A stretch of 64,000 nt of DNA, from contig CAZQZT010000001.1 in assembly GCA_964597925.1 (NCBI GenBank), positions 13,629 through 77,628 on the forward strand. The letters run 5' to 3'. Below are positions 1,660 through 42,598 of the stretch, piece by piece. The position numbers were made by a program, and so were the translations under genes. Source of the stretch: an uncultured Candidatus Saccharibacteria bacterium (GTDB lineage: Bacteria > Patescibacteriota > Saccharimonadia > Saccharimonadales > JBBQAJ01). Numbering within the stretch: the stretch's first letter is position 1; the number at the start of each line of letters is the position of its first letter. Under the pieces are notes generated by a model. The model was not told where the DNA came from and ran no database searches. It saw only the letters and a list, made by a program, of their open reading frames with translations.

Positions 1660-2350
1660 TTACTGAAAAAGCATAGCATTAAGTGAAAGTTGCCTCTCAA
1701 TTAACGCATTTGGTATGCGAGACATTAACTGTACCAAATCTAGCAAATAAATTAATAGTACTTTGGCTGGAAGGGTAAAAATACCACTTAACGTGGGCAA
1801 AAGCATACCTGCTAGACCGGCAAATAGTGAAAATAACATAGCTATTGGTATAAGTGGCACAGCTAATAAATTAGCCAGATACTGCAATAATGTGAGTCAA
1901 TCCGACAATTGAAAGTGTGGCCGTAACCATGTCTGTTGAAGTGCTCCTCTGCCCAATCAATAAACCGATCTCAAAAGAAGCTTGTGGCTCTGGCAGTGCC
2001 GTTTCCATACCAGCTGCAAAATTGCGCCTCATGCTGTCTACTGGCGAGCCACTGCTTTTCAAAACCTCCATGTCGGCAAAGCTCATTCTTAGTTGCCGGC
2101 TTACCCTGGTGCTATATACCTTGCCTTCTACTTGCACTAATACGCCTTTAAAAATTATTGGTTCGCCAAAACCAGATATCAACAATCTGCCTGGAAGTTC
2201 TCCATACTCTGGAACTCTAACGTTAAGCCTGCTTGTGTCAAAAGACAGTTCTTTTCGCTCATTATAAACAGCGTCACTATCTACCTGCACGTTCGCGACT
2301 ATATGCTGACTATACAATGCCTGGATGGGTTGGAATTGTTGAAAAAACAC
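1660..2350 (-). pseudogene. comEC: ComEC/Rec2 competence channel remnant (two fragments, truncated at both ends)
   Basis: ORF 1871..2350 ends ...LSIVGLTHIIAVSG-stop (the ComEC GLxHLxAxSG motif region, preceded by an OB-fold-like part). ORF 1660..1887 (ANLLAVPLIPIAMLF...) resembles a later ComEC TM segment in another frame. An in-frame stop lies 10 codons upstream of 2350. Total ~234 aa against several hundred expected. Confidence 0.6.
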
Positions 2351-2438
2351 CTGGCCACGCCACCAACCCCTGGATAATTATTGTAGTATGTCGAAACCTG
2401 AGACTCCGCTGAAACACCTTGAAACTAGTGTAGTATAG

Positions 2439-2583: not shown

Positions 2584-2659
2584 GGGCCCATAGCTCAGTT
2601 GGTAGAGCAGCGGCCTTTTAAGCCGCGTGTCGCGAGTTCGAGCCTCGCTGGGCCCTCCA
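2584..2659 (+). tRNA. tRNA-Lys (anticodon UUU), CCA encoded
   Basis: Hand-folded cloverleaf: GGGCCCA / GCTC-AGTTGGTA-GAGC / GCGGC-CTTTTAA-GCCGC / GTGTC / GCGAG-TTCGAGC-CTCGC / TGGGCCC-T-CCA. Confidence 0.9.
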
Positions 2660-2673
2660 TACAGCTTATGCTT

Positions 2674-2705
2674 AAAACAGAGGTAATATGCCTCTGTTTT
2701 TATTT
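2674..2705. terminator. Bidirectional hairpin terminator (tRNA-Lys and convergent EamA gene)
   Basis: AAAACAGAGG-taatatg-CCTCTGTTTT followed by TATTT. Overlaps the stop codon of 2700..3569(-). Confidence 0.7.
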
Positions 2706-3569
2706 AGCTACGTTTAGAATGATTAATCCGACTGTACCGAGTACAGCGGCACCAATCTTAAACCAAAGCCACTCTTTTTCTTTTAAAACAAAGTAAGCAG
2801 ATAATACTACCAATACTGCCATAAAACTTGCAGATGCACCTACTAATGAAGCATTACCGCTCAATTTGAGTGCTCCTACAAAACACAAGCCTTTAAAAGC
2901 ATTAGTGATACCGTAACCCAGAATTGGCCAAAAGGTGGACTTGTCTTTCAGGATTTTAATATTGCGTCTTTCTGGCCAAGCAGCAATAGTCATCCACAGT
3001 GTCTGAGCACCCCATCCAAAAACAAGATAGGCCCCAAAATCTATACGAGTAAGCATCCAACGTTCAAACACAATTGCTAAACCCAATAAAGAAACGCTTA
3101 CCAAAGCAAAAGCTAGACCGCTAGAACTACTTGTTGAACGATGTCTTAGTCTTGGTAATGTTGCAAGGAAAGTTGAAGTTATGATAATTACTGCCCCTAG
3201 TTGCTGCTGGCTGTTTAATGTTTCATTCAATAGTATTGATGCAGCAACAATCGTGATAATTGGGGTTAAATTATTCAGTATTGTATAAAGTCCTGCGTCA
3301 ACATCCTTACTAGCTCGAAAAGCTAGTAAGTTTATCAGAGGAAAGACGCCACTTCCAATAAGCAGGATTAGCAGATTTTGCCATCCTATTGATAGATTGG
3401 GATTACTGAAAGATGCAACTATGAGACCAAGCGGATAGAGCACAACAATGAAAAAGAAGCCATTTATCAACCTATTGTGTTGCTTTAGGGTCGTAGCCAG
3501 TTTTCGTCGCAATAGATAGGCTGCAGTGCCCAGAATAAGGTATCCAGTTATTAATAATTGCCAAGTCAT
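2700..3569 (-). CDS. EamA/DMT-superfamily transporter (10 TM)
   Basis: 289 aa, strongly hydrophobic with a two-fold repeat typical of EamA domains. TGATATAGT sits 7 nt upstream of the ATG with no SD. Confidence 0.7.
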   Translation of the reverse strand: MTWQLLITGYLILGTAAYLLRRKLATTLKQHNRLINGFFFIVVLYPLGLIVASFSNPNLSIGWQNLLILLIGSGVFPLINLLAFRASKDVDAGLYTILNNLTPIITIVAASILLNETLNSQQQLGAVIIITSTFLATLPRLRHRSTSSSSGLAFALVSVSLLGLAIVFERWMLTRIDFGAYLVFGWGAQTLWMTIAAWPERRNIKILKDKSTFWPILGYGITNAFKGLCFVGALKLSGNASLVGASASFMAVLVVLSAYFVLKEKEWLWFKIGAAVLGTVGLIILNVAK

Positions 3570-3614
3570 TCATTAAACTATATCAGTAATTGTGAGTGAT
3601 GATGTTTGCTTTAT

Positions 3615-3658
3615 TTTAGTTGCAACAGCAATACATACGTCCCTCCAATAAGCTTATG
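3615..3658 (+). repeat. Cassette junction repeat a (tRNA-Lys 3'-end-like)
   Basis: TTTAGTTGCAACAGCAATACATACGTCCCTCCAATAAGCTTATG. It shares CCCTCCA plus AGCTTATG with the tRNA-Lys end and flank. Confidence 0.85.
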
Positions 3659-3666
3659 TCTAAAAT

Positions 3667-3689
3667 ACTCCACACCTGGAGTCTTTTTG
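3667..3689 (+). terminator. Hairpin plus T-run inside junction a
   Basis: ACTCCA-cacc-TGGAGT then CTTTTTG. Confidence 0.5.
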
Positions 3690-3746
3690 TTGTTATTAGT
3701 TGTATATGCCCTAAAGCGAGCATCGTGTGAGAAAATAAAACAGTTA

Positions 3747-3787
3747 GTTCCTAGTACCTGGTGTACTAGGAACTTTTGTGCTATACT
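3747..3787 (+). promoter_or_regulatory. Perfect 11-bp inverted repeat (operator or terminator-like) abutting an extended -10 box
   Basis: GTTCCTAGTAC-ctggt-GTACTAGGAAC (3747-3773), TTTTG, then TGCTATACT (3779-3787). ATG at 3794 is 6 nt after the -10 box. Confidence 0.5.
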
Positions 3788-3793
3788 GGTCAT

Positions 3794-4780
3794 ATGAATA
3801 CATCGCAGAAAATTGTTCAATACATACAAGAACATGGCCAGGTAGCAGGGTCTGAGCTAGTAGATTATCTGACTATAACAGATCGTGCAGTGCGTAAACA
3901 ATTAAAGACTCTACTGGATAACGGTACAGTTGTTAAGGCAGGAAAACCGCCAAGGGTTTACTATTCTATCAACCGGGAAACAAGTACAGCCAATAAAGGT
4001 ATGGACAGGACTAAGTCCATAGACAAAATTACTCAACAGACCATTAAAGATAAATTCTTGTATATAACTCCAAGAGGATTGATGCTTGAGGGATTGGATG
4101 GATTCAACATTTGGTGTCAGGAAAGACAAATTGACCCTGTGAAGACTGCGTCCACTTACCAAAAAACTATGAATAAATATCTGAAATACAGAGAGCAAGA
4201 CCTTATTGATGGCATGTATAAGATGAAGTCAAGTTTCGAGGCAATAGCTCTAGATGAGGTTTTTTATATTGATTTCTATGCTATCGAGATTTTTGGCAAA
4301 ACAAAACTTGGACAGCTCCTATTGGTTGCCAAACAGAGCCAGAATAGGAAACTAATCAACGAGATAGCCGATATAATCGAACCCTCTGTACTAAAGATAA
4401 TTAGAGAATATAGCATTGACGGTGTGGGCTTTATACCACCCACAGTTAAAAGAGAGCTGCAACTTATACGGCAAGTTCAAAAAAGACTAAACTTGGATAC
4501 CAGAAAACTTGTTATCAATAAAGTTAAAACTCCAGTAGCTGTGCCACAAAAGACCCTAAATAAGATTGAGGATAGAATTACGAATGCCATGGAGACAATT
4601 GTAGTAGAGGGTAATGAAAGCTACGGCAATATTCTGCTTATAGATGATGCGGTTGGATCTGGCTCTACTCTTAACGAAACAGCTAAGAAGATCCGACAGA
4701 AGGGGCTCTGCAAGGGCAAAATTATTGGACTTGCAATTACAGGTAGTTTTAAAGGTTTTGAAGTAATAAGTGAGGTATAG
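3794..4780 (+). CDS. Winged-HTH plus phosphoribosyltransferase-domain protein (ComF/PurR-like architecture)
   Basis: The N-terminus (MNTSQKIVQYIQEHGQVAGSELVDYLTITDRAVRKQLKTLLDNGTV) looks like a wHTH. The C-terminus has NILLIDDAVGSGSTLNETAKKIR, a PRTase PRPP-binding loop. ORF track starts at 3776; ATG 3794 is preferred because of the -10 box spacing. Confidence 0.55.
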   Translation: MNTSQKIVQYIQEHGQVAGSELVDYLTITDRAVRKQLKTLLDNGTVVKAGKPPRVYYSINRETSTANKGMDRTKSIDKITQQTIKDKFLYITPRGLMLEGLDGFNIWCQERQIDPVKTASTYQKTMNKYLKYREQDLIDGMYKMKSSFEAIALDEVFYIDFYAIEIFGKTKLGQLLLVAKQSQNRKLINEIADIIEPSVLKIIREYSIDGVGFIPPTVKRELQLIRQVQKRLNLDTRKLVINKVKTPVAVPQKTLNKIEDRITNAMETIVVEGNESYGNILLIDDAVGSGSTLNETAKKIRQKGLCKGKIIGLAITGSFKGFEVISEV

Positions 4781-4844
4781 CAGCCGATCATTTGTATAAT
4801 CTAGATGCCAATCCTATCATACAGGGTTCTCTATTTCCTTTCAG

Positions 4845-4880
4845 TTTAGTTGCAATACCGATACATACGTCCCTCCAATC
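4845..4880 (+). repeat. Cassette junction repeat b
   Basis: TTTAGTTGCAATACCGATACATACGTCCCTCCAATC. Confidence 0.85.
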
Positions 4881-4907
4881 TAGACTCTAGTAGGAATACT
4901 GCAAATA

Positions 4908-4930
4908 AACTCCCTTTCGGGAGTTTTTTG
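4908..4930 (+). terminator. Rho-independent terminator inside junction b
   Basis: AACTCCC-tttc-GGGAGTT then TTTTTG. Directly followed by TGTTATGAT (-10 box) and ATG at 4944. Confidence 0.65.
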
Positions 4931-4943
4931 TTATGATGAAGCT

Positions 4944-5498
4944 ATGAAACCGAAGCTTATTATTCTCAACGGTCCACTAGGTATCGGTAAATCAACTCTC
5001 GCCAAGAAATATGGCGAGAAGCACCCACTGACGCTACAGCTAGACATAGATGACGTATGGAGCATGATTAGCCATTGGCGTGATGAAAAAGAAACTTCCG
5101 CTCCAATTTCAAAAAAAATGGCTTTAGAAATGGCTCGGATAAACTTAGCTGCTGGCAATGACGTTATAATTCCCCAGATTATACAGACAGAAGAACTGGC
5201 AGATAGCTTTAAAGCTCTATCCAAAGAGTGCGGCGCTGATTACATAGAAGTTTTACTTTTCGTTGAAAAAGAAGAAGCTATTCGCCGTTTTATCAAGCGA
5301 GGACAAGAAGACGGTAACCCTACAGGTTTTAGACCAGGTGGCATTATTGATACGGGTGGCAGAGAAATAAAGTTGGCAGAGATGTACGACAATATGATTG
5401 AATTATCTGAGCGTAAAAATGACGTAATCAGAATTGAGCCTGTTCTGGGAGACATTGACGGAACTTACTCAGCCCTACTAGAAAAAATAAACAGTTGA
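4944..5498 (+). CDS. P-loop NTPase/kinase (AAA_33-like small-molecule kinase fold)
   Basis: Walker A LNGPLGIGKST at the N-terminus, 184 aa. Size and layout resemble zeta-toxin or chloramphenicol-phosphotransferase-like kinases. Substrate unknown. Confidence 0.55.
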   Translation: MKPKLIILNGPLGIGKSTLAKKYGEKHPLTLQLDIDDVWSMISHWRDEKETSAPISKKMALEMARINLAAGNDVIIPQIIQTEELADSFKALSKECGADYIEVLLFVEKEEAIRRFIKRGQEDGNPTGFRPGGIIDTGGREIKLAEMYDNMIELSERKNDVIRIEPVLGDIDGTYSALLEKINS

Positions 5499-5506
5499 GT
5501 AGCTAA

Positions 5507-5562
5507 TTTAGTTGCAACAGCGATACATACGTCCCTCCATACCGCTTATGCTTAAAACAGAG
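5507..5562 (+). repeat. Cassette junction repeat c (closest to the tRNA-Lys flank)
   Basis: TTTAGTTGCAACAGCGATACATACGT then CCCTCCATACCGCTTATGCTTAAAACAGAG. The second part matches 2653-2682 at 29 of 30 positions. Confidence 0.9.
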
Positions 5563-5597
5563 ATATTTTTTTCCTTTGTTTTTGTTAATATATGTTC

Positions 5598-5960
5598 ATG
5601 AATAAATTAATAAGATATTTATTCCCTATGTTACTTGGTACAGGCATTTTGTTCTATTTGATTATTGTCCACGGACTAAGCTTAAATAATCCATACTACG
5701 TTTACGATGACAGACTGGTTAATACATCTTTCTGGTTAATGATTATCGGTGTTCTGGGAAGTTTGATTATTACAGTTAAAAGGTTTGGTGTTCACAGGTT
5801 GAAAGTACTTCTAGTTATCTGGGCTGTTGCTTTTCTGTCTTTATTTTTACTCTATACAGGTGACGATTTGTCATCCTTAGGCTGGGCAATCTTGGCTTAT
5901 CCAACAGTAATCCTAGGTAGTATATTGGTCATTGTATACTCGTTTCGAAACGCAAAATAG
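5598..5960 (+). CDS. Small integral membrane protein (4 predicted TM), unknown function
   Basis: Hydrophobic 120-122 aa ORF. TGTTAATAT (5583-5591) lies 6 nt before ATG 5598; the ORF-track start 5592 is the alternative. The stop codon TAG lies inside repeat d. Confidence 0.5.
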   Translation: MNKLIRYLFPMLLGTGILFYLIIVHGLSLNNPYYVYDDRLVNTSFWLMIIGVLGSLIITVKRFGVHRLKVLLVIWAVAFLSLFLLYTGDDLSSLGWAILAYPTVILGSILVIVYSFRNAK

Positions 5961-5998
5961 TTGCAATAGTATCTACTACGGCCCTCCAATCCGGTTAT
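5958..5998 (+). repeat. Cassette junction repeat d (diverged)
   Basis: TAGTTGCAATAGTATCTACTACGGCCCTCCAATCCGGTTAT. It retains GGCCCTCCA, 9 nt of the tRNA-Lys acceptor end. Confidence 0.75.
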
Positions 5999-6050
5999 TT
6001 TTAAACTCTGCTCTTAGAACTTTCTGTTTATATAATCTCATACGTTCCTA

Positions 6051-6094
6051 TTGACATACATAGATACAATATGTACAATATTATGTACAAGGAG
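6051..6094 (+). promoter_or_regulatory. Promoter, operator and SD of the toxin-antitoxin operon
   Basis: TTGACA (6051-6056), 17 nt, TGTACAAT (extended -10, 6072-6079). ATGTACAA occurs twice (6071-6078, 6083-6090), each containing the palindrome TGTACA. SD AAGGAG at 6089-6094. Confidence 0.55.
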
Positions 6095-6102
6095 TAGTAC
6101 AA

Positions 6103-6357
6103 ATGAAAATAGCATCAATCTCAAAGTTTCGTAAAGATATAAAACGATACGTTGACGAAATCGACCAAGATCAAGAGCCGTTAGTTGTAACGCGTGGCGA
6201 CAATGTCTCTGTTGTGGTCATATCTCTTAATACCTTTAACTCTTACTCGGAAACAGAATATCTGTTACGGAGTCCGGCTAATGCTCGCCGCCTGCTAAAG
6301 TCAATGGAAAACGCCCGCTCTGGAAATGTTGAGGCTCACGAATTGATTGAGGGATAA
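6103..6357 (+). CDS. Phd/YefM family antitoxin
   Basis: 84 aa; FRKDIKRYVDEIDQDQEPLVVTRGDNVSVVVISLNTFNSYSETEYLL is typical of YefM. Overlaps the toxin gene. Confidence 0.85.
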   Translation: MKIASISKFRKDIKRYVDEIDQDQEPLVVTRGDNVSVVVISLNTFNSYSETEYLLRSPANARRLLKSMENARSGNVEAHELIEG

Positions 6358-6622
6358 CACTTTGAGTCGAAGGCTTACATTCACACCTCAAGCTTGGGAA
6401 GAATACCTTTATTGGCAAGGGCACGATAAACAGCTGTTGAAAAAGCTCAACCAACTCTTAAAAGATTGCCAGCGAGATCCACTATCAGGCATCGGCAAGC
6501 CAGAGCCCCTCAAGGGTGATCTATCGGGTGCATGGTCTCGACGAATCAATGACGAGCACCGCCTGGTCTATATTGTTGATGACAAAGAAATAAGAGTTTC
6601 ATCCTGCCGCTACCATTATTGA
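6347..6622 (+). CDS. Txe/YoeB family toxin (mRNA interferase)
   Basis: WEEYLYWQ...DPLSGIGKPEPLKGDLSGAWSRRINDEHRLVY...CRYHY, a YoeB signature. Start is uncertain (TTG 6347 or TTG 6362). Confidence 0.85.
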   Translation: MRDNTLSRRLTFTPQAWEEYLYWQGHDKQLLKKLNQLLKDCQRDPLSGIGKPEPLKGDLSGAWSRRINDEHRLVYIVDDKEIRVSSCRYHY

Positions 6623-6632
6623 AGTACGAATC

Positions 6633-6655
6633 TCAGTTGCAATAAACTTGTTACG
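6633..6655 (+). repeat. Partial junction repeat (left arm only)
   Basis: TCAGTTGCAATAAACTTGTTACG resembles the left arm TTAGTTGCAAYAGC...ACG but lacks CCCTCCA. Confidence 0.5.
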
Positions 6656-6679
6656 TGAAGGCTTTTTGTATTGGCAATT

Positions 6680-6723
6680 TTGGTTGCAACAGCGCTACAT
6701 ACGTCCCTCCAATAAGCTTACGA
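6680..6723 (+). repeat. Cassette junction repeat e
   Basis: TTGGTTGCAACAGCGCTACATACGTCCCTCCAATAAGCTTACG. Followed by an imperfect hairpin (6726-6752) and TGATATAAT (6752-6760). Confidence 0.85.
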
Positions 6724-6766
6724 TTAAACAGATATTATTTGTCTCTGTTTTTGATATAATTCAGTA

Positions 6767-7648
6767 GTGAATATTGCCATAATCGGCGCCAGTGGTTACA
6801 TTGGCCACAATTTAATTCAGAGATTACTAGCTGAAACAAATCATTCTGTGATTGCACTTTCACCTAGTGCCGAATCAATACAAGTTGATAATGAGCGTTT
6901 AACTAAGCACAATGTTGATGTTTTCGACACAGATATTCTACGTACATATCTTCTCAACTGCGATGTTACCTACTATTTAATACACATGATGGCACAGAAA
7001 AAACTTGACTTCGCTGAGGCAGAATTAATAGCAGTAGAGAGTTTCTGTGCCGCCGCAAAAGATTCAAAAATTAAGCGAGTAATATACCTTAGTGGTCTGG
7101 GTAATGATAATGAACAGCTGTCAAAGCACCTCAAGAGTCGTCATAATACAGGCAAGGTATTAAAAAATATACTTCCGCAAGTTATTGAATTCCGCGCGTC
7201 GATGGTTATCGGAAAAGGCAGTATTTCGTATGATATTGTTACGAACCTTATTCACAAATTACCCTTACTGACATTGCCAAAATGGGCTAGAACGCTCACG
7301 CAACCAATAGGGCTACATGATACTTTGTCATATCTGGTTGCAGCGCTCAATCTACAGACTACACAACATCAGATAGTCGAAATAGGTGGACCTGAGCAAC
7401 TTTCGTATGGTGATTTGATGAAAAGATATGCAGCCTGGGAAAATAAAAAGATAATTATCATAAAACTACATGTGATTCCAGTGAGAATTGCAGCATGGTG
7501 GTTAAATTTATTTACGCCAAAAACTCATGCAAAAGTAGGGAGGATAATGGTCGAGTCTTTGTCTAACCCTATGGTAGTTACAAATAACACAGCCGCCGAA
7601 CTGTTTCCTGGTATACGCCCAAAAACACTCGAAGAAGTTTTTGTATAA
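6767..7648 (+). CDS. NAD(P)H-binding NmrA/atypical-SDR family protein
   Basis: N-terminal Rossmann motif IAIIGASGYIGHNL, 293 aa. GTG start 6 nt after TATAAT (6755-6760), no SD. Confidence 0.65.
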   Translation: MNIAIIGASGYIGHNLIQRLLAETNHSVIALSPSAESIQVDNERLTKHNVDVFDTDILRTYLLNCDVTYYLIHMMAQKKLDFAEAELIAVESFCAAAKDSKIKRVIYLSGLGNDNEQLSKHLKSRHNTGKVLKNILPQVIEFRASMVIGKGSISYDIVTNLIHKLPLLTLPKWARTLTQPIGLHDTLSYLVAALNLQTTQHQIVEIGGPEQLSYGDLMKRYAAWENKKIIIIKLHVIPVRIAAWWLNLFTPKTHAKVGRIMVESLSNPMVVTNNTAAELFPGIRPKTLEEVFV

Positions 7649-7649
7649 A

Positions 7650-7680
7650 AAATAACCCGGTCTCGCAGGCCGGGTTATTT
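7650..7680. terminator. Bidirectional terminator between convergent genes
   Basis: AAATAACCCGG-tctcgcagg-CCGGGTTATTT. Confidence 0.7.
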
Positions 7681-7697
7681 GATAGTCCTAATTTCTA

Positions 7698-8282
7698 TTA
7701 ACTAGGCAGTAAAACGCCACCAATAACATGCACAACACCATTGTCTGCATTTACATCGGCTTTTTCAACGATTACTTTATTTCCCTTAGCATCAGTTAAG
7801 TAAACTTTACCGTCCATGATAGAAACAGTTAGTGTTCCACCCTGCACGGTTGTAATTACCTGACCATCCTTAAGGTCCTGTGCCAAAACTGCTCCTGACA
7901 CTACGTGATAGGTTAGTATAGATTTTAGCTGTTCAACATTTTCAGGTTTTAGCAAAGTAGCGAGCGTACCTTCAGGCAATGCCTCAAAAGCTGCATTCGT
8001 CGGAGCGAATACTGTAAATGGACCTGCTCCTTGTAGCGTATCAACTAAACTGGCTGCTTTTAGTGCAGTTACTAAAGTTGATAGACTAGGTGTTTCTGAT
8101 GCTACGACTACGATTGAACCTGCATTTTGCTGTTTCATTTGCTCTGCCATATCAGACTGGCTTGCCGTTTCTTTGCTAGCTTGATCATCATTCATATTCA
8201 TTGCCCAGAATATTCCACCACCTATAACTAAGACAGTTATGATTCCGACAATGATTCCAGTAGATTTATTATTGCTTTCCAT
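7698..8282 (-). CDS. Fasciclin (FAS1) domain protein with N-terminal membrane anchor
   Basis: TM helix GIIVGIITVLVIGGGIFWA, then GPFTVFAPTNAAFEALPEGTLATLLKPEN...LTYHVVSG and a VVHVIGGVLLP ending (FAS1 H1/H2 motifs). Confidence 0.85.
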   Translation of the reverse strand: MESNNKSTGIIVGIITVLVIGGGIFWAMNMNDDQASKETASQSDMAEQMKQQNAGSIVVVASETPSLSTLVTALKAASLVDTLQGAGPFTVFAPTNAAFEALPEGTLATLLKPENVEQLKSILTYHVVSGAVLAQDLKDGQVITTVQGGTLTVSIMDGKVYLTDAKGNKVIVEKADVNADNGVVHVIGGVLLPS

Positions 8283-8327
8283 GATTTCTCCTTAAAAATT
8301 AAATACCAACAGAACAAGATTACCCTC

Positions 8328-8915
8328 CTACTTCATTGCTACCTCCTTGTTTGCTAGACTCCGCATCAGAAACTTATGGATTGAACTGGTAACATCATCG
8401 AGTTCGCTTTTTTTGGGAGGCTCGGGGTAATACTCAAGTAAAAAACCGTTTATTGCGTGGGCTATTACCTTTGCTTCTTTGTTGATTTCGGATTTATTAA
8501 TACTAAATTCTTCATTTTTAATTCCAACTTCTAATACTTCTTCAATATGGAGATAGCCTTTTGTTGGAAGATAACCATTATCCAATTTCAAAAAATTTGA
8601 CCTAAAGTGAAGATAGTATTTCAGTAAAAACACTACGTTTTCGATATGATCAAACTGAAATTTAATCCTGCCCATGAGCATATCTGATGCAGAGTTTGTG
8701 AAGGGTAATTTTTCCCTAGCGATTCCAAGTGCCTTGTTGGTGTTATCAAATATTTCTTTTAGCAGCTCATCTTTGTCGCTAAAAAAGTGGTAGATACTAG
8801 AAATGCCTACACCACACTCTTTGGCCAGTGTGCGTATGGAAAATCCTTCATAGCCATTTGTGGCAAAATGTCTTTTGGATATTTGTAAAATTGTTGATTT
8901 TGTAGTTCCAGTCAT
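8328..8915 (-). CDS. TetR/AcrR family transcriptional regulator
   Basis: N-terminal HTH region ILQISKRHFATNGYEGFSIRTLAKECGVGISSIYHFFSDKDELL. Confidence 0.85.
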   Translation of the reverse strand: MTGTTKSTILQISKRHFATNGYEGFSIRTLAKECGVGISSIYHFFSDKDELLKEIFDNTNKALGIAREKLPFTNSASDMLMGRIKFQFDHIENVVFLLKYYLHFRSNFLKLDNGYLPTKGYLHIEEVLEVGIKNEEFSINKSEINKEAKVIAHAINGFLLEYYPEPPKKSELDDVTSSIHKFLMRSLANKEVAMK

Positions 8916-8921
8916 AATATC

Positions 8922-8959
8922 GTAACAAACGTTACATTAGTTAGTGTAACATTTGTTAC
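8922..8959. promoter_or_regulatory. Twin palindromic operator upstream of the TetR gene
   Basis: GTAACAAACGTTAC (8922-8935) and GTAACATTTGTTAC (8946-8959). Both are GTAAC-N4-GTTAC, 6-44 nt upstream of the TetR start. Confidence 0.6.
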
Positions 8960-9085
8960 ACTATTTTAGCTAGTATTTTTATTATCAATCAGTAGTTAAA
9001 GACATTTCCGGCTGAGAGTGTCGTGTAAATACAGCATCCTAAACCTCACAAATTACAGAACGAACTTTAAGCAGATTGAATTTTG

Positions 9086-9853
9086 TCACTGCACAAGAGT
9101 AGCGGAGAATATTTGCCATGCAAGTAATGACTTAGCCACGAAGCTCAGAATTATGTAGGTTTTCTCACCCCTCAAATAGTTAGCCCATTTACCTTTTGCT
9201 TTATACTGTTTGTACTGAACCAATGCAAAGCAATTAAAGAATACAAAAAGAGAGAAAACGATTCCATAAACGAACCCAGGAGCAGAAGCACCGGCAGGCC
9301 CGCCAGGTGAAAAAAGCTGGGTCACGATTATAATCCAGGGGATTATGCCCGCGATACAACCAAATATAAATGGTAGCCATTGTCCGTCCCCTGGTTGCGC
9401 GTATTTCTCTTGTAGCCAACCAAACAATATCATCGATACGTTAACACCAAAGATTGCTAGTAGGGCAGCATAGTCGCTAATACCATTAATCTGCGCGATC
9501 AGGAAAATCATGACCGACGAGCTAAGAGAGTATTCAACCCAACGAAAGATATTTCGGTTGTGCTTTAATCCTATAGCATATTTTGGGAAATACTTTTTTG
9601 AAGACACCAAAAAATGAAAGAACGCCGACAACCCAAGGAACAGTGCCACTGTATAGCTCACGTTGGTACTAAATAGTAATATCGGATTCGTAAATGTGCT
9701 ACCGGGTGGACCTGTCATATAAGTAGCAGTAACTGGTAATGCGAAATTATTTGACAAGGCAACAACTGCAATTAATGACGCCAGATGCAACATCCCAGCC
9801 GAGATATTCCACTTTCGAAGTGGTTTTATTTGTGCGTCTGTTAATTTGTTCAT
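9086..9853 (-). CDS. Heliorhodopsin (7-TM retinal protein with inverted topology)
   Basis: 255 aa with blocks I recognise from heliorhodopsins: ALPVTATYMTGPPGSTF, NIFRWVEYSLSSSVMIFLIAQI, SMILFGWLQEKY, PGFVYGIVFSLFVFFNCFALVQY, GKWANYLRGEKTYIILSFVAKSLLAWQIFS. The K in VAKS is the presumed Schiff-base lysine. Confidence 0.85.
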   Translation of the reverse strand: MNKLTDAQIKPLRKWNISAGMLHLASLIAVVALSNNFALPVTATYMTGPPGSTFTNPILLFSTNVSYTVALFLGLSAFFHFLVSSKKYFPKYAIGLKHNRNIFRWVEYSLSSSVMIFLIAQINGISDYAALLAIFGVNVSMILFGWLQEKYAQPGDGQWLPFIFGCIAGIIPWIIIVTQLFSPGGPAGASAPGFVYGIVFSLFVFFNCFALVQYKQYKAKGKWANYLRGEKTYIILSFVAKSLLAWQIFSATLVQ

Positions 9854-9959
9854 TATTTAATTATACCACTCTGTTACTTTTTGAGTAACGGTGTTTTGGC
9901 AATTGTGCCATGGTGATGCATCAAGAAATGAGCTTGCATTCTGGTATAATTTTTCAATC

Positions 9960-10040
9960 ATGGTCTACGTGTTATCTTCTGACTATAAACTGGCTATTCC
10001 CCTTATCGGATATAGCTTTTTTATACTTGTGGCAAAATGA
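9960..10040 (+). CDS. Candidate 26-aa hydrophobic micro-ORF (below the ORF-track cutoff)
   Basis: TGGTATAAT (9942-9950) 9 nt upstream. MVYVLSSDYKLAIPLIGYSFFILVAK. Its TGA abuts the next ATG (TGAATG). Confidence 0.2.
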   Translation: MVYVLSSDYKLAIPLIGYSFFILVAK

Positions 10041-10214
10041 ATGAGCGTGGAGAAAATATACCAACTGCCTGGCTCTATAGGCAAAGCTATTGTACAAGAT
10101 TCATTTAACATTAATGTTTCGGCATCACCAGTCGCCGCTCAAATAACTGAAGCCGCATCCCCTGTAACCACTCCACCTGCAACTGAAGAACCCCAAACTA
10201 CTCCAGCACAATAA
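10041..10214 (+). CDS. Candidate 57-aa small protein, Pro/Thr-rich tail
   Basis: Own translation: MSVEKIYQLPGSIGKAIVQDSFNINVSASPVAAQITEAASPVTTPPATEEPQTTPAQ. Start abuts the upstream micro-ORF stop. Confidence 0.3.
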   Translation: MSVEKIYQLPGSIGKAIVQDSFNINVSASPVAAQITEAASPVTTPPATEEPQTTPAQ

Positions 10215-10215
10215 T

Positions 10216-10704
10216 TTATTTGTGGCGCTTACCGTGTTTGCCGTGAGATTTCGGTCGCATCAAAAACATGACCAGTAAATGCATGCCTGCCACAGTCACA
10301 ATAATTATATCTTGTGATTTTCGCATTATATTACCTGCATCCGTAAGATAAATAGACCCTTGTAGGCCCGGAGTTAGTAACGGTAACAAAAAAGTTGCTA
10401 ACAACAAGCTGTCTGCGACTAGCAAAATAAACTGGAAAGGCAAAGAAGCTGCTGATAATGTTTTGCGCATTAGTATAAATGTTAGCAATACGGGAATAAG
10501 TAGTAGGAAAACGTTTGTTATCACGTCTGTATTGGACACGTTAGTAAAAGTTCCTACCAACAGCCCTGCGCTGTCACCCAAAAACTCCGCCCAAAAATAA
10601 CCAGTGACTAAGCTAACAAACAGATACAGGGGCTTTACTCTTAGCAGTATTGCCAAAAGTAACGGCAGTCCCGTAATTATAGCTAGGATAATCAGTGGTG
10701 GCAT
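10216..10704 (-). CDS. Integral membrane protein, unknown function
   Basis: 162 aa, about 5 hydrophobic helices, basic tail KSHGKHGKRHK. Last gene of the ATP-grasp gene string. Confidence 0.5.
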   Translation of the reverse strand: MPPLIILAIITGLPLLLAILLRVKPLYLFVSLVTGYFWAEFLGDSAGLLVGTFTNVSNTDVITNVFLLLIPVLLTFILMRKTLSAASLPFQFILLVADSLLLATFLLPLLTPGLQGSIYLTDAGNIMRKSQDIIIVTVAGMHLLVMFLMRPKSHGKHGKRHK

Positions 10705-12536: not shown

Positions 12537-13489
12537 TATTCTTCCTCTGCTAGCTCAAGGTTACGTTTTATGAAATCAGTAAAATGAATAACTTTTTTCG
12601 AAACATCATAGCCAGTAGCCAGTGCTGGCGTTGAATTAACTTCTAAAACATAGGGTTCATTAGTGTTTTTATCTACTAAAATATCCACACCGCTTATTTC
12701 ACGCTTCAGACAAGCCGCTGCTTTGCGAGCAATAATGAGATGTTCTGGTGGTACGGCTTTGACATCTAGTGCCGTTCCGGCTCCGCCCTTTGAGGTGTTG
12801 TTTAGATGAGTCTCGCCTTCTGCTTTGCGGTGAAAAATAATAGGTTCAGCGTCGGTTCCAATGAAAAGATAGCGATAGTCGCCATCATTTGGGTGATAAG
12901 TTTGTACAACAAACTGTTTATTTGCTTCAGAATCACGTACTTTACTGGCAGCATCTTCGGCATTGTGAACAAGATAGTTGTCACTGCCCTTTGAACCGTC
13001 ATCCGCTTTTAGAATAAGCGGGAAGTTGAAGCCTTCAGGAAGTGCGTCAGCGTCGAGCGTTGTCTGCAAATGCTGATGCTTTAGAAATAATGTGTCACAT
13101 ACAGGCACGTCGTCCATGGCCAGACGACAAATTTGTGAAATCTTGCCCCATGCCAGCCCAGCATCTACTTCTTCGTTTACGAATGATACGGAGTTTTTAC
13201 GTAGATAGTGAGCAATCAACGAAGCATGTTCATAATCAAACATCCAGTTTTTGAAATGAATCAGATGTACGTTTTTTAGGTCAATATCGTGTTTTGTGTC
13301 CGTAATTGTAACCTTGTTGTTCTGAACCACACACATGATGTCATCATAGGTGGTGTATAAAACTGATGTGTCTTCGAGTCGTGACTCTACAGACTCATAA
13401 AAATCACGAACGTACTGTTCGCGCTGTTTCCAGTCGATAGTCTTATCTGTACGTGCAGATGTGATAATAAGTACAATGGCTTTCTTCAT
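12536..13489 (-). CDS. ATP-grasp ligase, RimK/GshB-like paralog 2
   Basis: PLILKADDGSKGSDNYLV, DYRYLFIG, HLNNTSKGG, GVDILVD...YVLEVNSTP; the ATP-grasp motifs in order. 1-nt overlap with the downstream protease gene. Confidence 0.7.
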   Translation of the reverse strand: MKKAIVLIITSARTDKTIDWKQREQYVRDFYESVESRLEDTSVLYTTYDDIMCVVQNNKVTITDTKHDIDLKNVHLIHFKNWMFDYEHASLIAHYLRKNSVSFVNEEVDAGLAWGKISQICRLAMDDVPVCDTLFLKHQHLQTTLDADALPEGFNFPLILKADDGSKGSDNYLVHNAEDAASKVRDSEANKQFVVQTYHPNDGDYRYLFIGTDAEPIIFHRKAEGETHLNNTSKGGAGTALDVKAVPPEHLIIARKAAACLKREISGVDILVDKNTNEPYVLEVNSTPALATGYDVSKKVIHFTDFIKRNLELAEEE

Positions 13490-13555
13490 AGGCTTACTTT
13501 ACCATGATAACTACTTAGTTTACTCTGTTATTTATATCTAATTGCCGAACCTTTT

Positions 13556-29373: not shown

Positions 29374-29450
29374 GGCGGCATAGCTCAGATGGTTAGAGCG
29401 CAGGACTCATAAGCCTGAGGTCACTGGTTCGATCCCAGTTGCCGCTACCA
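29374..29450 (+). tRNA. tRNA with CAU anticodon (elongator Met or Ile2), CCA encoded
   Basis: GGCGGCA / GCTC-AGATGGTTA-GAGC / CAGGA-CTCATAA-GCCTG / AGGTC / ACTGG-TTCGATC-CCAGT / TGCCGCT-A-CCA. G1-U72 wobble and an A31-G39 mismatch. Confidence 0.85.
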
Positions 29451-31603: not shown

Positions 31604-31678
31604 CGCGGGGTAGAGCAGTGGCAGCTCGTGTGGCTCATAACCACAAGGTCGCAGGTTCGAGTCCTGCCCCCGCTACCA
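31604..31678 (+). tRNA. Initiator-like tRNA-fMet (CAU), CCA encoded
   Basis: CGCGGGG...CCCCGCT-A-CCA gives a 1:72 mismatch (C1/U72) and an A11:U24 pair. Close overall to the E. coli initiator as I recall it. The anticodon stem TGTGG/CCACA has only two G-C pairs next to the loop. Confidence 0.75.
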
Positions 31679-31679
31679 A

Positions 31680-32184
31680 GTGAGAGTTTTTGACCGCTAC
31701 GGCGGTCTTTTTCTTTGGTGCGTATCTGTAAAGCTCGCTTATTTCCGAGGTTCCAAACTGATGGTTAGTTGAGTCATAGACCACACCCCTTGGGAACAAC
31801 ATGCTTTGGAACCTATATTGATTATCCAGGTCGGATGACTTCCACTGTTTGTGTACTTTATGCATAACATTAATAGCCAGCTCTATGTCACTCTCTCGAA
31901 TTTGCTGTTGCTGTTCTAGGCTTTCAAGCTCTGCCGACCTATCTATTTTTTGCTCATCAAGGCTGGCTAAGTATTCGTCTTTCTCACTTTCTGTAATGGT
32001 TCCCTCTATGAATTTATTGACAGCCTTACTTCGTTTTTCAGAAACATCATCCAAGGCTTTTCTAGCTCTCGATATTCGTATGTTCAGATTATCCAACGAT
32101 GCATTAGCCTCTTTTATGAGTACCTGCAACTCCTCAATAAGTATGTTCCAATTCGAATGAACGGTGTTCAAAATTAAGTCATTA
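31680..32184 (-). pseudogene. Large serine recombinase remnant (C-terminal coiled-coil region only)
   Basis: HSNWNILIEELQ...KFIEGTITESEKDEYLASLDEQKIDRSAELESLE...KQWKSSDLDNQYRFQSMLFPRGVVYD resembles the C-terminal third of large serine recombinases. The catalytic N-terminus is absent. ORF 31635..32321 reads through into the tRNA and overlaps the next gene. Confidence 0.55.
31692..31712 (+). terminator. Rho-independent terminator after the tRNA
   Basis: GACCGC-tacg-GCGGTC then TTTTTC. Confidence 0.75.
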
Positions 32185-32187
32185 CTA

Positions 32188-32598
32188 TTAATAGGCTTTT
32201 TGTTGTAGGGGATGGCAATTGATATATAAATCTGACTTTTGATACTCGGCAATTTCTGTTTTTGATGCAAAGTTTTGTAACTTTGGCGTAGATGGATAGG
32301 TATACTTCTCGACGCAAGCATCGTACTTCCACTGATAGTAGTTCTGGCTAGCCCAGCCCCATATGCCTGCTGTTATTGGCAATATAACAAAAGGTATAAG
32401 TATGATAAATACTGCTATCCCGATTTGCTTTTTGCCTCTAGCGTCGCTTATTAAGAATTTTCTTAGTGTTTTGTAAGCTAGAAAAATCATCAGTGCCCAG
32501 AAAGCCAAATACACTATTAATCCTAATACAATGATTAGCGTTGCCTCAGGCGATAGGTTTTCAAATTCCCAATTAGAGCCAGCAAAAATTTTAAACAT
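32188..32598 (-). CDS. Small membrane protein (3 TM), unknown function
   Basis: 136 aa with three hydrophobic helices. Flanked by two copies of a 34-nt recombinase-derived repeat (32128-32161, 32646-32679; 30 of 34 identical). Confidence 0.5.
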   Translation of the reverse strand: MFKIFAGSNWEFENLSPEATLIIVLGLIVYLAFWALMIFLAYKTLRKFLISDARGKKQIGIAVFIILIPFVILPITAGIWGWASQNYYQWKYDACVEKYTYPSTPKLQNFASKTEIAEYQKSDLYINCHPLQQKAY

Positions 32599-32700: not shown

Positions 32701-32754
32701 AGTATGGCTCTCAGAAATGGGAGTCTTTTTTGTTCCCTTTGTTATGATTAGTAG

Positions 32755-33162
32755 ATGAAGAACGATAAATATTTCTTAACGGTCGCTATTGAAGAAGCTA
32801 AGAAAAGTAAATCCCCGCATAAATTTGGAGCGGTAGTTGTTAAAGATGGTGAAATTATTGCTCAAGACTGCAACCACGTACGTGAGATAAATGACCCCTC
32901 AGCCCATGCAGAAATTTCAACAATACGGAAAGCATCGAATATATTGGACAACTACAACATTGATGGATGTGTTCTATATGCAAGTCATGAGCCGTGCTTA
33001 ATGTGCTTTAGTTGTGCGGCTTGGGCAAACATCTCAAGAATTGTATATGCACATCCTGCGTCAGACAGTTCCGAAGATAGTTACGAATTTAAGGGCGTAA
33101 GCTTAAAAGAATTGGCTAAAAAACTAGTAAAGCCTATGGAAGTTGAATTGATACAGGTATAA
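32755..33162 (+). CDS. CMP/dCMP-type zinc deaminase (TadA or guanine-deaminase-like)
   Basis: HAE...PCLMC zinc motifs (SAHAEISTI, SHEPCLMCFSCAAW), 135 aa. TGTTATGAT ends 6 nt before the ATG. Confidence 0.75.
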   Translation: MKNDKYFLTVAIEEAKKSKSPHKFGAVVVKDGEIIAQDCNHVREINDPSAHAEISTIRKASNILDNYNIDGCVLYASHEPCLMCFSCAAWANISRIVYAHPASDSSEDSYEFKGVSLKELAKKLVKPMEVELIQV

Positions 33163-35147: not shown

Positions 35148-35223
35148 TGGTGGGGGTGGTAGGAATCGAACCTACTACCAAGTGGTTATGAGCCGCCTGC
35201 TCTAACCGATGAGCTACACCCCC
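35148..35223 (-). tRNA. tRNA with CAU anticodon (Ile2-like or elongator Met), CCA encoded
   Basis: The reverse complement reads GGGGGTG / GCTC-ATCGGTTA-GAGC / GGCGG-CTCATAA-CCACT / TGGTA / GTAGG-TTCGATT-CCTAC / CACCCCC-A-CCA. The anticodon arm resembles E. coli tRNA-Ile2 as I recall it. ORF 34993..35274 is an artefact over it. Confidence 0.85.
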
Positions 35224-37920: not shown

Positions 37921-38562
37921 TTAAGATTTGACAATATCTGTAGCTGGTTTGTGGTTTTTTAGCTTTTTGCTATAGATGTAGGCTAGTGAAACTATAAGAG
38001 TTAGGGCATAAAAATACCAGACTGTGAGGTACCAGCCTGACCTTAGCTGACTACCTAGTTTTAGTGAATGCAAAACTATTAGTAAAATTGCCAGGTCGCT
38101 GGCGTATTGGACAAATTTCCACCATGACTTTTGGTCAAATATTCGCCGAAGTTCATATGCCAAAAACACCGTAAGGCTAACCATACCTATAACTATGCTG
38201 GCTTTCATATTTGGCCCAAGATAGTTGAGCTCACTGGCTGGCGGTAAACCTAAACCATCTCGCCATAACTGCCAAGCTAGCAGTGCAGGATGTAGCAAAA
38301 CTGCCACCAGCACAGCCAAGCTAGTAACCTCAAAGTAAGACTTCAATACTGCCTTTTCTATACCAAAATGTAACCGTAGTGCAGCCATAACGTAATGCAC
38401 CCACATTAGGCTAAATGCCAGCAGCCCGAACAGAGGGAAAAGCTGATATGTGCTGATTCCACTAAGCTGCCAACTATTTCCCTGCCCCCATGCCAGCACC
38501 GCCAAAACAACTGCCCCAACACTCACTCCCCACGCCACCATTTGCAGTTGCTTATCTTTCAT
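37921..38562 (-). CDS. Integral membrane protein (6 TM; possibly ferric-reductase/YedZ-like)
   Basis: 213 aa with conserved-looking His residues in TM helices (WVHYV, LLHPALL, VLHSLKLG). Assignment is speculative. Confidence 0.4.
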   Translation of the reverse strand: MKDKQLQMVAWGVSVGAVVLAVLAWGQGNSWQLSGISTYQLFPLFGLLAFSLMWVHYVMAALRLHFGIEKAVLKSYFEVTSLAVLVAVLLHPALLAWQLWRDGLGLPPASELNYLGPNMKASIVIGMVSLTVFLAYELRRIFDQKSWWKFVQYASDLAILLIVLHSLKLGSQLRSGWYLTVWYFYALTLIVSLAYIYSKKLKNHKPATDIVKS

Positions 38563-38693
38563 CCTAACATCATACCAAATTACTCACCCGAACAAGCGGA
38601 TCGTTTTCACCCTAGCCACTTTTGCCAAGGGCAGTATGTAATATTCCATGCTTGTCCATACGGACCGGGGGCTCGGGTGAAAATGATGAGCGC

Positions 38694-42584: not shown

Positions 42585-42598
42585 GCTAGACTTAAAAG

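Follow-up and report, generated by a model that had tools for sequence, protein, structure and literature searches.

The window analysed here, a stretch of 64,000 nucleotides (nt) from an uncultured Candidatus Saccharibacteria bacterium, carries at the 3' end of a tRNA-Lys(UUU) gene an array of small units, each holding one gene or one toxin-antitoxin pair, that are delimited by five copies of a 37-nt junction sequence. These units are discrete modules whose boundaries run from the core of one junction to the core of the next, they are confined to tRNA-Lys, they share a stereotyped architecture and no recombinase is linked to them. We consider it likely, at a probability of roughly 0.68, that they are site-specific, non-autonomous cassettes inserted at the tRNA-Lys 3' end and mobilised by an unlinked recombinase. 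The array is integron-like in function, without falling under the definition of an integron.

The final 7 nt of the tRNA, CCCTCCA (2653-2659), are the core common to all junctions and the attachment point of the array. Repeat finding yields a five-copy family of 52-nt direct repeats downstream of the tRNA gene, with starts at 3613, 4843, 5505, 5954 and 6677. In each copy (junctions a to e, whose cores are listed in Table 1) a 30-nt left arm of the form T-AGTTGCAAYAGC-N leads into CCCTCCA, giving a site of 37 nt in total that closes on the tRNA's last 7 nt. A second repeat family joins the tRNA end and its flank (2653-2685) with copies a, c and e. By eye, 29 of 30 nt of copy c equal the tRNA end with its flank, and the repeat family gives 94% over 33 nt, while copy d has 9 nt, GGCCCTCCA, in common with the acceptor end, both as first reported. 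A 29-nt consensus matches the window four times, where 0 matches would be expected. A weight matrix trained on 154 junctions, all of them from other organisms, scores the window copies between 37.7 and 49.6 bits (a 44.2, b 37.7, c 41.9, d 49.6, e 39.4) and gives no further site above 8 bits on either strand of the 64 kb, shuffled sequences reaching at most 1.9 bits. The first-pass annotation, which had proposed a five-fold junction repeat anchored at tRNA-Lys, is therefore supported both in the position of the cores and in their number.

Concerning secondary structure, the junctions match no RNA family in Rfam, and the five of them show no consistent single-strand fold on either strand (z from -3.8 to +1.4), four folding no better than shuffled sequences, which agrees with the earlier statement that an attC-type structure is missing. 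The array region (window 4001-8000) has a GC content of 39.0%, the minimum of the window, with 41-45% in its surroundings. GC skew is positive at 4001-8000, opposite to the surroundings, which fits a foreign origin together with an opposite gene orientation; to either side of the array it is negative, i.e. there is no GC-skew switch at the locus. Exact-protein look-ups recovered the same array in 12-13 independent Logan assemblies from one sample series, hence it is not an assembly artefact.

Distribution and exchange of the units

The occurrence of the junctions in related species was followed through yebC-anchored loci only, a sample of 80 loci taken from GTDB species genomes, with 57-84% YebC identity, nearly all labelled Saccharibacteria or Saccharimonadales and amounting to 1.35 Mb (related loci and contigs compared with the window are labelled with L-numbers, such as L039, L127 or L187). 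In most of them tRNA-Lys(UUU) lies between a conserved membrane-protein/RimK block and comEC-yebC-ruvCAB, in either orientation and 0.3-7 kb from yebC. A relaxed regular expression places the junction in 10 of the 80 loci, with 1-2 copies each, all at the tRNA-Lys/comEC-yebC position and none elsewhere in the 1.35 Mb. As there is no other site in the window either, the earlier supposition that the consensus is not a generic intergenic module holds over the loci of these 80 species. The tRNA-Lys flanks of cassette-free genomes display plain terminator hairpins. The comEC gene itself is broken up in the window (1660-2412, minus strand), where fragments of 159 and 75 amino acids (aa) and a 59-aa open reading frame (ORF) stand in place of the intact protein of ~485 aa in relatives; judging from these reading frames it may be a pseudogene, in a naturally competent phylum.

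A pattern scan of metagenomes gave 98 contigs with a total of 166 junctions, the largest direct array having 7; viral contigs gave 0 matches to the junction pattern, with no phage or plasmid carrier there. A same-strand tRNA-Lys is found upstream in 43 loci (among the metagenome contigs, 20 with anticodon CUU and 15 with UUU), and arrays start at tRNA-Lys wherever enough upstream sequence is present. CCCTCCA ends all 43 of these genes, thus both isoacceptors, and the usual left-arm ending, ...ACGGTGGCCCTCCA, has 10-12 nt in common with tRNA-Lys(CUU). No other tRNA type directly heads an array, the tRNA-Gln of L175 being located ~1.1 kb before the first junction. In L124 (186-4646) tRNA-Lys(UUU) and tRNA-Lys(CUU) lie 4.3 kb apart with cassettes after each, its UUU tRNA differing by 1 nt from that of the window, and in L150 (1475-6365) a second tRNA-Lys(CUU), not identical to the first, follows a junction at a distance of 37 nt.

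The conserved stretch of 159 distinct junctions covers positions -34 to 0 and reads A-N3-TAGTTGCAAYAGC-T--AC--TGG-CCCTCCA. The A at -34, present in 150 of the 159 and often part of TGA or TAA, is located six bases before the TAG of TAGTTGCAA, so that the arm offers two in-frame stops; of 89 cassette ORFs, 20 indeed terminate at its TAG. Unit length has a median of 727 nt (118 units), and 83 of the 114 units shorter than 3 kb hold one ORF. Most cassette ORFs are co-oriented with the array (136, with 29 inverted), and the start codon follows the core at a median distance of 59 nt. The 150 cassette proteins fall into 102 Pfam families, including kinases, phosphatases, PIN/ParE/YafQ/YoeB toxins, NUDIX proteins and methyltransferases.

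The content of the array differs strongly between relatives. By tblastn, the EamA, HTH-PRTase (helix-turn-helix and phosphoribosyltransferase), membrane-protein, NAD-binding, fasciclin, TetR and heliorhodopsin genes of the window are all missing from the locus in the 80 relatives, whereas the flanking genes, including those for a 162-aa membrane protein, DUF192 and ComEC, are present in many of the same relatives, and the only window cargo found at the locus is the kinase and the toxin-antitoxin pair. Since the flanks are kept and the cargo is mostly absent, the locus is a hypervariable hotspot.

Where a unit does recur, its limits coincide with the cores. The kinase unit of the window and that of L039 are 86% identical in amino acids, with 44-55% for the chromosomal flanks, and their alignment extends from one core to the other, outside of which the sequences are unrelated; the position of the unit in the array also differs, the left neighbour being a pseudo-tRNA end in L039 and the arm of another cassette in the window. 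A 99%-identical cassette is found directly after tRNA-Lys(UUU) in L127 and inside a tRNA-Lys(CUU) array, after another cassette, in L178, where the two left contexts have only the 9 nt GGCCCTCCA in common. Homology is likewise bounded by the cores in L124/L159, L111/L159/L152/L150 and L114/L175. In every compared pair each arm moves with its neighbouring cassette, the left arm with the one upstream of it and the right arm with the one downstream.

Loss of units is seen in an ENA contig, L187, which is ~99.7% identical to the window over the kinase unit and lacks the membrane-protein and YefM-YoeB units, joining the kinase straight to junction e and the NAD-binding gene. No other variant was found within the population, as the Logan samples all carry the same array and only L187 differs. 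An invariant gene order, which would have counted against the first-pass annotation, is accordingly not seen: cargo is missing in relatives, two units are missing in L187 and the kinase unit is relocated in L039. A Logan contig from another sample, L192, ends exactly at window position 2659, the last base of tRNA-Lys, and L002 and L186 end at 2600; the break at the last tRNA base hints at population heterogeneity in what follows the tRNA.

Units and expression signals of the window array

By Pfam, the cargo of the window comprises EamA, HTH_11 with a weak PRTase match, AAA_33, a membrane protein without a hit, YefM, YoeB and NAD_binding_10/NmrA (Table 1). Five units are bounded by junctions, namely EamA, HTH-PRTase, P-loop kinase, 120-aa membrane protein and YefM-YoeB, and for these the earlier claim of exactly one gene or toxin-antitoxin pair between junctions stands. 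It does not extend to the sixth, NAD(P)-binding unit, which has a cassette-type 5' end and no distal junction. This gene probably occupies a fixed distal place and is not a bounded cassette, and its 77% homologue in L127 likewise follows the last junction of a tRNA-Lys(UUU) array.

Table 1. Features of the tRNA-Lys array and its distal segment (window coordinates; right-arm types are described in the following section)
Feature	Position	Strand	Details
tRNA-Lys(UUU)	2584-2659	+	ARAGORN; Rfam tRNA 70.7 bits
Cassette 1, gene inverted	2660-3647	+	EamA 2700-3569 (-); left arm a 3611-3640; core 3641-3647
Cassette 1, 5' part	~2675-2701 (hairpin)		type-i right arm TACAGCTTATGCTTAAAA; bidirectional hairpin
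TGATATAGT box	3577-3585	-	7 nt to EamA ATG
Cassette 2	3648-4877	+	HTH-PRTase ORF 3794-4780; left arm b 4841-4870; core 4871-4877
Cassette 2, hairpins	3667-3682 and 3746-3774
TGCTATACT box	3779-3787	+	6 nt to ATG 3794 (HTH-PRTase)
Cassette 3	4878-5539	+	AAA_33 P-loop kinase 4944-5498; left arm c 5503-5532; core 5533-5539
Cassette 3, 5' part	4907-4926 (hairpin)		right arm ATCTAGACTCTAGTAGGAATACTG; hairpin
TGTTATGAT box	4929-4937	+	6 nt to ATG 4944 (kinase)
Cassette 4	5540-5988	+	120-aa membrane protein 5598-5960; left arm d 5952-5981; core 5982-5988
Cassette 4, 5' part			type-i right arm (29/30 to tRNA end and flank); weak hairpin
TGTTAATAT box	5583-5591	+	6 nt to ATG 5598 (membrane protein)
Cassette 5	5989-6711	+	yefM 6103-6357; yoeB 6347 (or 6362)-6622; left arm e 6675-6704; core 6705-6711
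Degenerate left arm without core	6633-6655		in cassette 5; below 8 bits
Terminal unit	6712-7680	+	NAD(P)-binding NmrA-like gene 6767-7648; type-i right arm; no distal junction
Terminal unit, signals	~6726-6752 and 7650-7680		hairpin (~6726-6752); strong terminator (7650-7680)
TGATATAAT box	6752-6760	+	6 nt to GTG 6767 (NAD(P)-binding gene)
Variable segment without junctions	7681-10215	-	from array to conserved flank; fasciclin, TetR, heliorhodopsin, 57-aa ORF
Fasciclin	7698-8282	-
TetR	8328-8915	-
Heliorhodopsin	9086-9853	-
Start of conserved flank	10216-10704		162-aa membrane protein

The HTH-PRTase protein matches, in PADLOC, the C-terminal half of PsyrT (4e-18), PRTase effectors of type III-A retrons and ShosT, and no partner gene is present within cassette 2. 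The TAG stop of the 120-aa membrane protein is the TAG of left arm d, and a distant homologue of this protein forms a cassette in L137. YefM/YoeB homologues are found downstream of tRNA-Lys in L030 and L150. The sequence next to junction e at 6633-6655 had been described as a half repeat and an emptied slot; a degenerate left arm is indeed there, while its reading as an emptied slot is a guess.

Each unit brings its own expression signals, in line with the first-pass annotation. TGnTAnnnT boxes precede the starts at 6-7 nt (Table 1), and the toxin-antitoxin operon has a conventional promoter, TTGACA-17-TACAAT (6051-6079, 11 of 12 positions), together with a palindromic operator and an AAGGAG sequence. 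Hairpins are present at most junctions: terminator-like ones follow junctions a and b and, by eye, also the tRNA and junctions c and e. Across the collected arrays, 61 of 85 small co-oriented units have a T-run hairpin and, after it, TGnTAnnnT, with 6-8 nt between the box and the start codon in these 61 and exactly 6 nt in 48. An extended -10 box that ends 6 nt before the start implies a leaderless mRNA. TGnTAnnnT ending 6-8 nt before the start is also found for 10 of 56 non-array genes of the window (e.g. 12538-13498, 32754-33159, 37923-38583 and 42595-43867). The cassettes hence use the promoter grammar of the host, insulated from one another, and to judge from these boxes this genome seems to make regular use of extended -10 promoters that give leaderless transcripts.

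The array is separated from the conserved flank by a variable segment in which the weight matrix finds no junction remnant above 8 bits (7681-10215). Its heliorhodopsin gene is assigned with a Pfam E-value of 1.2e-91, and homologues of 44% identity are located just distal to tRNA-Lys(CUU) arrays in L156 (6034-6798) and L120 (58-714). Homologous recombination that favours the loss of junctions around genes worth keeping may account for this junction-less segment.

Mobilisation of the units

The search for a recombinase covered all ORFs of 80 aa or more in the window and in 187 loci (1.86 Mb). Phmmer with XerD, IntI1 and gamma-delta resolvase gives nothing beside the arrays, a regular expression for recombinase motifs has no match beside them, and none is encoded within 10 kb past either end of the window. 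As a control, the XerD probe showed 99.7% identity to the real protein and gave over 5000 matches on plasmids; a true large serine recombinase, that of L045, escaped the gamma-delta probe, and the search was redone with the L045 protein. Clustering of 889 ORFs gives no recurrent recombinase family, the recurrent ones being housekeeping flanks; the larger units hold no recombinase domain and the arrays no integrase fragments. The family clustering and the Pfam census also speak against HUH, DDE and DEDD enzymes, no probe having been aimed at them.

The L045 protein is part of a 4.6-kb element at tRNA-Lys (L045 449-5121), in which a large serine recombinase (Resolvase, E = 7.6e-13) reads into the tRNA and which has an 18-nt tRNA-end repeat; the single mismatch in this repeat places the crossover within the last 8 nt of tRNA-Lys. 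As a probe, this recombinase matches only L045, L072 (7900-9660) and a C-terminal remnant in the window, the ORF 31635-32321 (minus strand; best match 31704-32078), which corresponds to the C-terminal ~130 aa at 27% identity (E = 4e-5). That ORF has no catalytic domain, adjoins and overlaps the 3' end of a tRNA-Met (31604-31678, plus strand) 25 kb from the array, and no repeat of the tRNA-Met end is found downstream of it; its sequence suggests a leftover of a serine-integrase element at tRNA-Met. The statement that no recombinase is in sight is thus correct as to an adjacent integrase, in the window, in 10 kb beyond its ends and in ~190 related loci, and has to be amended for this decayed fragment. 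The same part of the window holds three tRNAs with a CAT anticodon within 6 kb (29374-29450, 31604-31678 and 35148-35223), presumably initiator, elongator and tRNA-Ile2, with small, variable-looking genes between them (an RRM protein, a deaminase and a pilin-like protein). The serine-recombinase element was also considered as the mobiliser of the cassettes and is unlikely in that role, as its P arm, GATTAACGTGCRTTGTCCCACTG, is unlike the cassette arm AGTTGCAAYAGC... and it never accompanies arrays.

Taken together, we propose the following mechanism, in which we infer the enzymatic step, the circular intermediate and the order of insertion. A cassette starts with a variable right arm (~15-20 nt), followed in order by a T-run terminator hairpin, a TGnTAnnnT box, usually a single ORF or toxin-antitoxin pair, the left arm and the core. 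Insertion at the core would rebuild the tRNA, because both tRNA-Lys isoacceptors end in the same 7 nt as the core, and would leave a new core behind the cassette, so that successive insertions would build a direct array of P-core-P' junctions. The recombinase would have to act in trans, from elsewhere in the genome, as it is absent from the cassettes and from the surroundings of the arrays. Homologous recombination between junction repeats would additionally remove units, and deletions such as that of L187 are, from the sequence of the joint, very likely of this kind. The tandem accretion with attP-like junctions put forward in the first-pass annotation fits this scheme. Site-specific integration of circles predicts all five main regularities, i.e. 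the core-to-core boundaries, the insertion after CCA, the use of both tRNA-Lys genes, the direct orientation and the arm carried by the cassette.

Several observations weigh against site-specific mobilisation. The searches returned no recombinase, and the central step is reconstructed. To the right of the crossover, the 159 junctions taken together contain next to no information, their right arms being of type i (GCTTATGCTTAAA, 44), type ii (CATAAGC, 16) or other (99), and a site conserved on one side only is not what one usually sees with a canonical tyrosine or serine recombinase that works on duplex DNA; moreover, the pattern of the metagenome scan included the core and part of the arm, so that conservation at those positions is partly built in. 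The joint of L187 is chimeric, c-type up to GTTGCAACAGCG and e-type after it, which puts the crossover inside the left arm, to the left of the core, and indicates homologous recombination between repeats instead of exchange at the core. Turnover is not fast, given that the array is identical in all the Logan assemblies of one population. Finally, there is no solid circular intermediate: the sole contig with a terminal overlap, L179 (Ga0075530_1028623, 1-2061), has a 17-nt direct repeat and, when circularised, is 2044 nt long with two junctions and two cassettes, a 334-aa pilin-like ORF spanning the join, and it could be an excised two-cassette circle or equally a collapsed tandem duplication.

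The L187 joint is what would be expected for repeats c and e if no dedicated recombinase existed and the units moved by natural transformation and RecA-type homologous recombination, with tRNA-Lys and the ~37-nt repeats as portable homology, in the manner of the 'minimal mobile elements' of Neisseria. In favour of this explanation are the natural competence of Saccharibacteria (PMC10633639), the location of the array beside comEC in relatives and a slight excess of mismatches in the 12 nt ahead of the core in cassettes that are otherwise 98-99% identical. We nevertheless regard it as unlikely. The first cassettes abut the tRNA exactly after CCA, where the identity of tRNA and left arm is 7-12 nt and thus too short for RecA, so that these tRNA-proximal joints cannot be reached by homologous recombination alone; the cassette found in L127 and L178 changed between a tRNA-adjacent and an internal position on 9 nt of left context; and a 30-nt arm conserved across many species, with arrays at two tRNA-Lys genes only, would go unexplained.

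The question of which enzyme could act in trans leads to the host's own Xer-type recombinase, which might be borrowed as by integrative mobile elements exploiting Xer (IMEX) and pdif modules, with the tRNA-Lys end and the type-i right arm forming a dif-like 11-6-11 pseudo-site. This possibility is compatible with the cassette reading given above. IMEX elements too have no recombinase linked to them (PMC5357621). Type-i junctions take the form nnGnCCCTCCA / 6 nt / TTATGCTTAAA, with the 6-nt spacing in 28 of the 37 scored, and the exchange boundaries are located exactly at the border of arm and central region, where XerC would cut. The right half, TTATGnTTAAA, resembles the XerD half-site, TTATGTTAAAT. 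The type-i arm is however present in only ~30% of the junctions, the left half ends in CTCCA and not in CATAA mirroring TTATG, the lack of a GC-skew switch shows that the locus is not a chromosomal dif site, and pdif sites alternate in orientation where the present ones are all direct. Hence, a Xer-type host enzyme is improbable as a full account and is to be taken as a lead, suggested by the 11-6-11 geometry and the XerD-like half-site of the type-i joints.

It is considerably harder to see the array as integrase-bearing islands that accreted in tandem at tRNA-Lys and each decayed to one cargo gene, the junctions being attL/attR scars. Islands of Prochlorococcus do accrete in this way (10.1101/2020.12.28.424599), and tRNA-Lys in this clade is also the target of the large-serine-recombinase element of L045 and L072 as well as the site of ~150-nt remnants in L034, L066 and L039 (141-169 nt after tRNA-Lys) that end in 13-17-nt duplications of the tRNA 3' end. 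Decay would, however, hardly produce units so stereotyped and tiny, with a start ~59 nt after the core and a stop that is often the TAG of the arm, nor would it leave identical single-gene units intact in different arrays; the arrays are free of integrase fragments and the left arm is unlike the P arm of the serine recombinase, which makes this account very unlikely.

Two further explanations can be dismissed briefly. A generic regulatory or structural module, whether similar to repetitive extragenic palindromes (REP) and bacterial interspersed mosaic elements (BIME), a terminator module or a 3'-UTR (untranslated region) RNA motif, would suit junctions that are intergenic, lie beside terminator hairpins and often provide a stop codon, yet it is effectively refuted by the confinement to tRNA-Lys loci and by the cores marking homology breakpoints, the orientation moreover being fixed to the tRNA whatever that of the gene (cassette 1 of the window; L111/L159) and a match in Rfam or a consistent fold being absent. 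An integron array that lost its integrase, i.e. a CALIN, a cluster of attC sites without integrase (PMC4889954), would share the single-ORF units with a 3'-end recombination site, the toxin-antitoxin cargo and the direct arrays, and is next to excluded by the lack of an IntI-like protein (phmmer), of an attC fold and of R''/L''-L'/R' boxes, by the promoters that the cassettes carry and by an anchor that is a tRNA 3' end and not attI.

Significance and comparison with known systems

Saccharibacteria have genomes of ~1 Mb and few other mobile elements. They and other members of the Candidate Phyla Radiation (Patescibacteria) have tiny genomes and have been regarded as poor in mobile elements. 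In the literature on Saccharibacteria and Patescibacteria that was covered, which mostly leaves out subscription journals, we found no description of such cassette arrays. Our tentative proposal, which goes further than the reading of the units as mobile cassettes and is held with correspondingly less confidence, is that promoter-bearing single-gene cassettes with a one-sided 37-nt duplex tag make up a previously unrecognised platform of Saccharibacteria, an independently evolved analogue of integrons, with insertion at either tRNA-Lys CCA end by an unlinked enzyme that could be a co-opted housekeeping recombinase or belong to a type needing one-sided sequence. There is a substantial chance that the arrays will constitute a distinct class once the enzyme is known.

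If this is true, the cassette platform at tRNA-Lys would be a main route by which Saccharibacteria obtain strain-specific accessory genes, ranging from toxin-antitoxin pairs and a PsyrT/retron-like PRTase to kinases, phosphatases and NUDIX proteins, with heliorhodopsin just beyond some arrays, and an integron-like organisation would have arisen without IntI or attC. In practical terms, the 37-nt tag allows direct harvesting of cassettes from metagenomes, and co-occurrence profiling could expose the enzyme. For the engineering of those few Saccharibacteria that can be transformed, the landing site at the tRNA-Lys 3' end, the short donor site and the portable leaderless promoters would be of use.

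Among the systems that can be compared, REP and BIME sequences differ in being dispersed, while here five matches in 64 kb and the tRNA-Lys locus only in 1.35 Mb of related loci were found. Elements of the IS200/IS605 type differ in that the 3' end of the junction here has no stable hairpin and the 5' hairpins vary as terminators do, no HUH-specific search having been made. The serine-recombinase elements of L045 and L072 use the same attachment point, at most the last 8 nt of tRNA-Lys, but are autonomous and of 4.6 kb, their P arm is unlike the cassette arm, their tRNA-end repeat measures 18 nt, and they do not occur in or beside arrays. A precedent for persistence between att sites is given by the cis-mobilizable elements (CIMEs) of streptococci, which have no integrase.

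IMEX elements and the pdif modules of Acinetobacter (PMC5357621, PMC6449649) are similar in having no recombinase of their own, and in forming small modules with short conserved sites in tandem arrays at one chromosomal site. The 44 type-i junctions among the 159 fit the 11-6-11 format with the XerD-like half-site TTATGCTTAAA, and the other junctions do not. IMEX differ in their target, which is dif near the replication terminus and not the tRNA-Lys end, and no skew switch accompanies the present locus. The pdif modules are plasmid-borne with alternating sites, whereas the present units are chromosomal, all direct, and most of their junctions have no dif-like right half.

The tycheposons of Prochlorococcus (10.1101/2020.12.28.424599) also integrate at tRNA 3' ends and restore the tRNA, leaving partial tRNA ends at the joints, and successive insertions shift older elements distally; the counterparts here are a duplicated core, an intact tRNA and 43 arrays headed by tRNA-Lys. 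They are however multi-kb elements with their own tyrosine recombinase and replication genes, while the units described here, of 0.3-1.7 kb, are ~10 times smaller, carry no mobility genes, have only 7-12 nt of tRNA identity and possess a conserved arm that is not derived from the tRNA.

Closest in organisation are integrons and CALINs, with which the arrays share the direct arrangement of compact, mostly single-ORF and mostly co-oriented cassettes, a recombination site at the 3' end of the cassette with the crossover at its extreme edge, a very diverse cargo that includes toxin-antitoxin pairs, and the existence of arrays without a nearby integrase. Unlike in integrons, no IntI is found near the arrays and the site is a primary sequence of ~37 nt instead of a folded attC; the array begins at the tRNA-Lys 3' end and not at attI; and each cassette is expressed through its own terminator and leaderless-type promoter where integron cassettes depend on Pc. 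These own promoters and terminators are the sharpest functional difference from integron cassettes.

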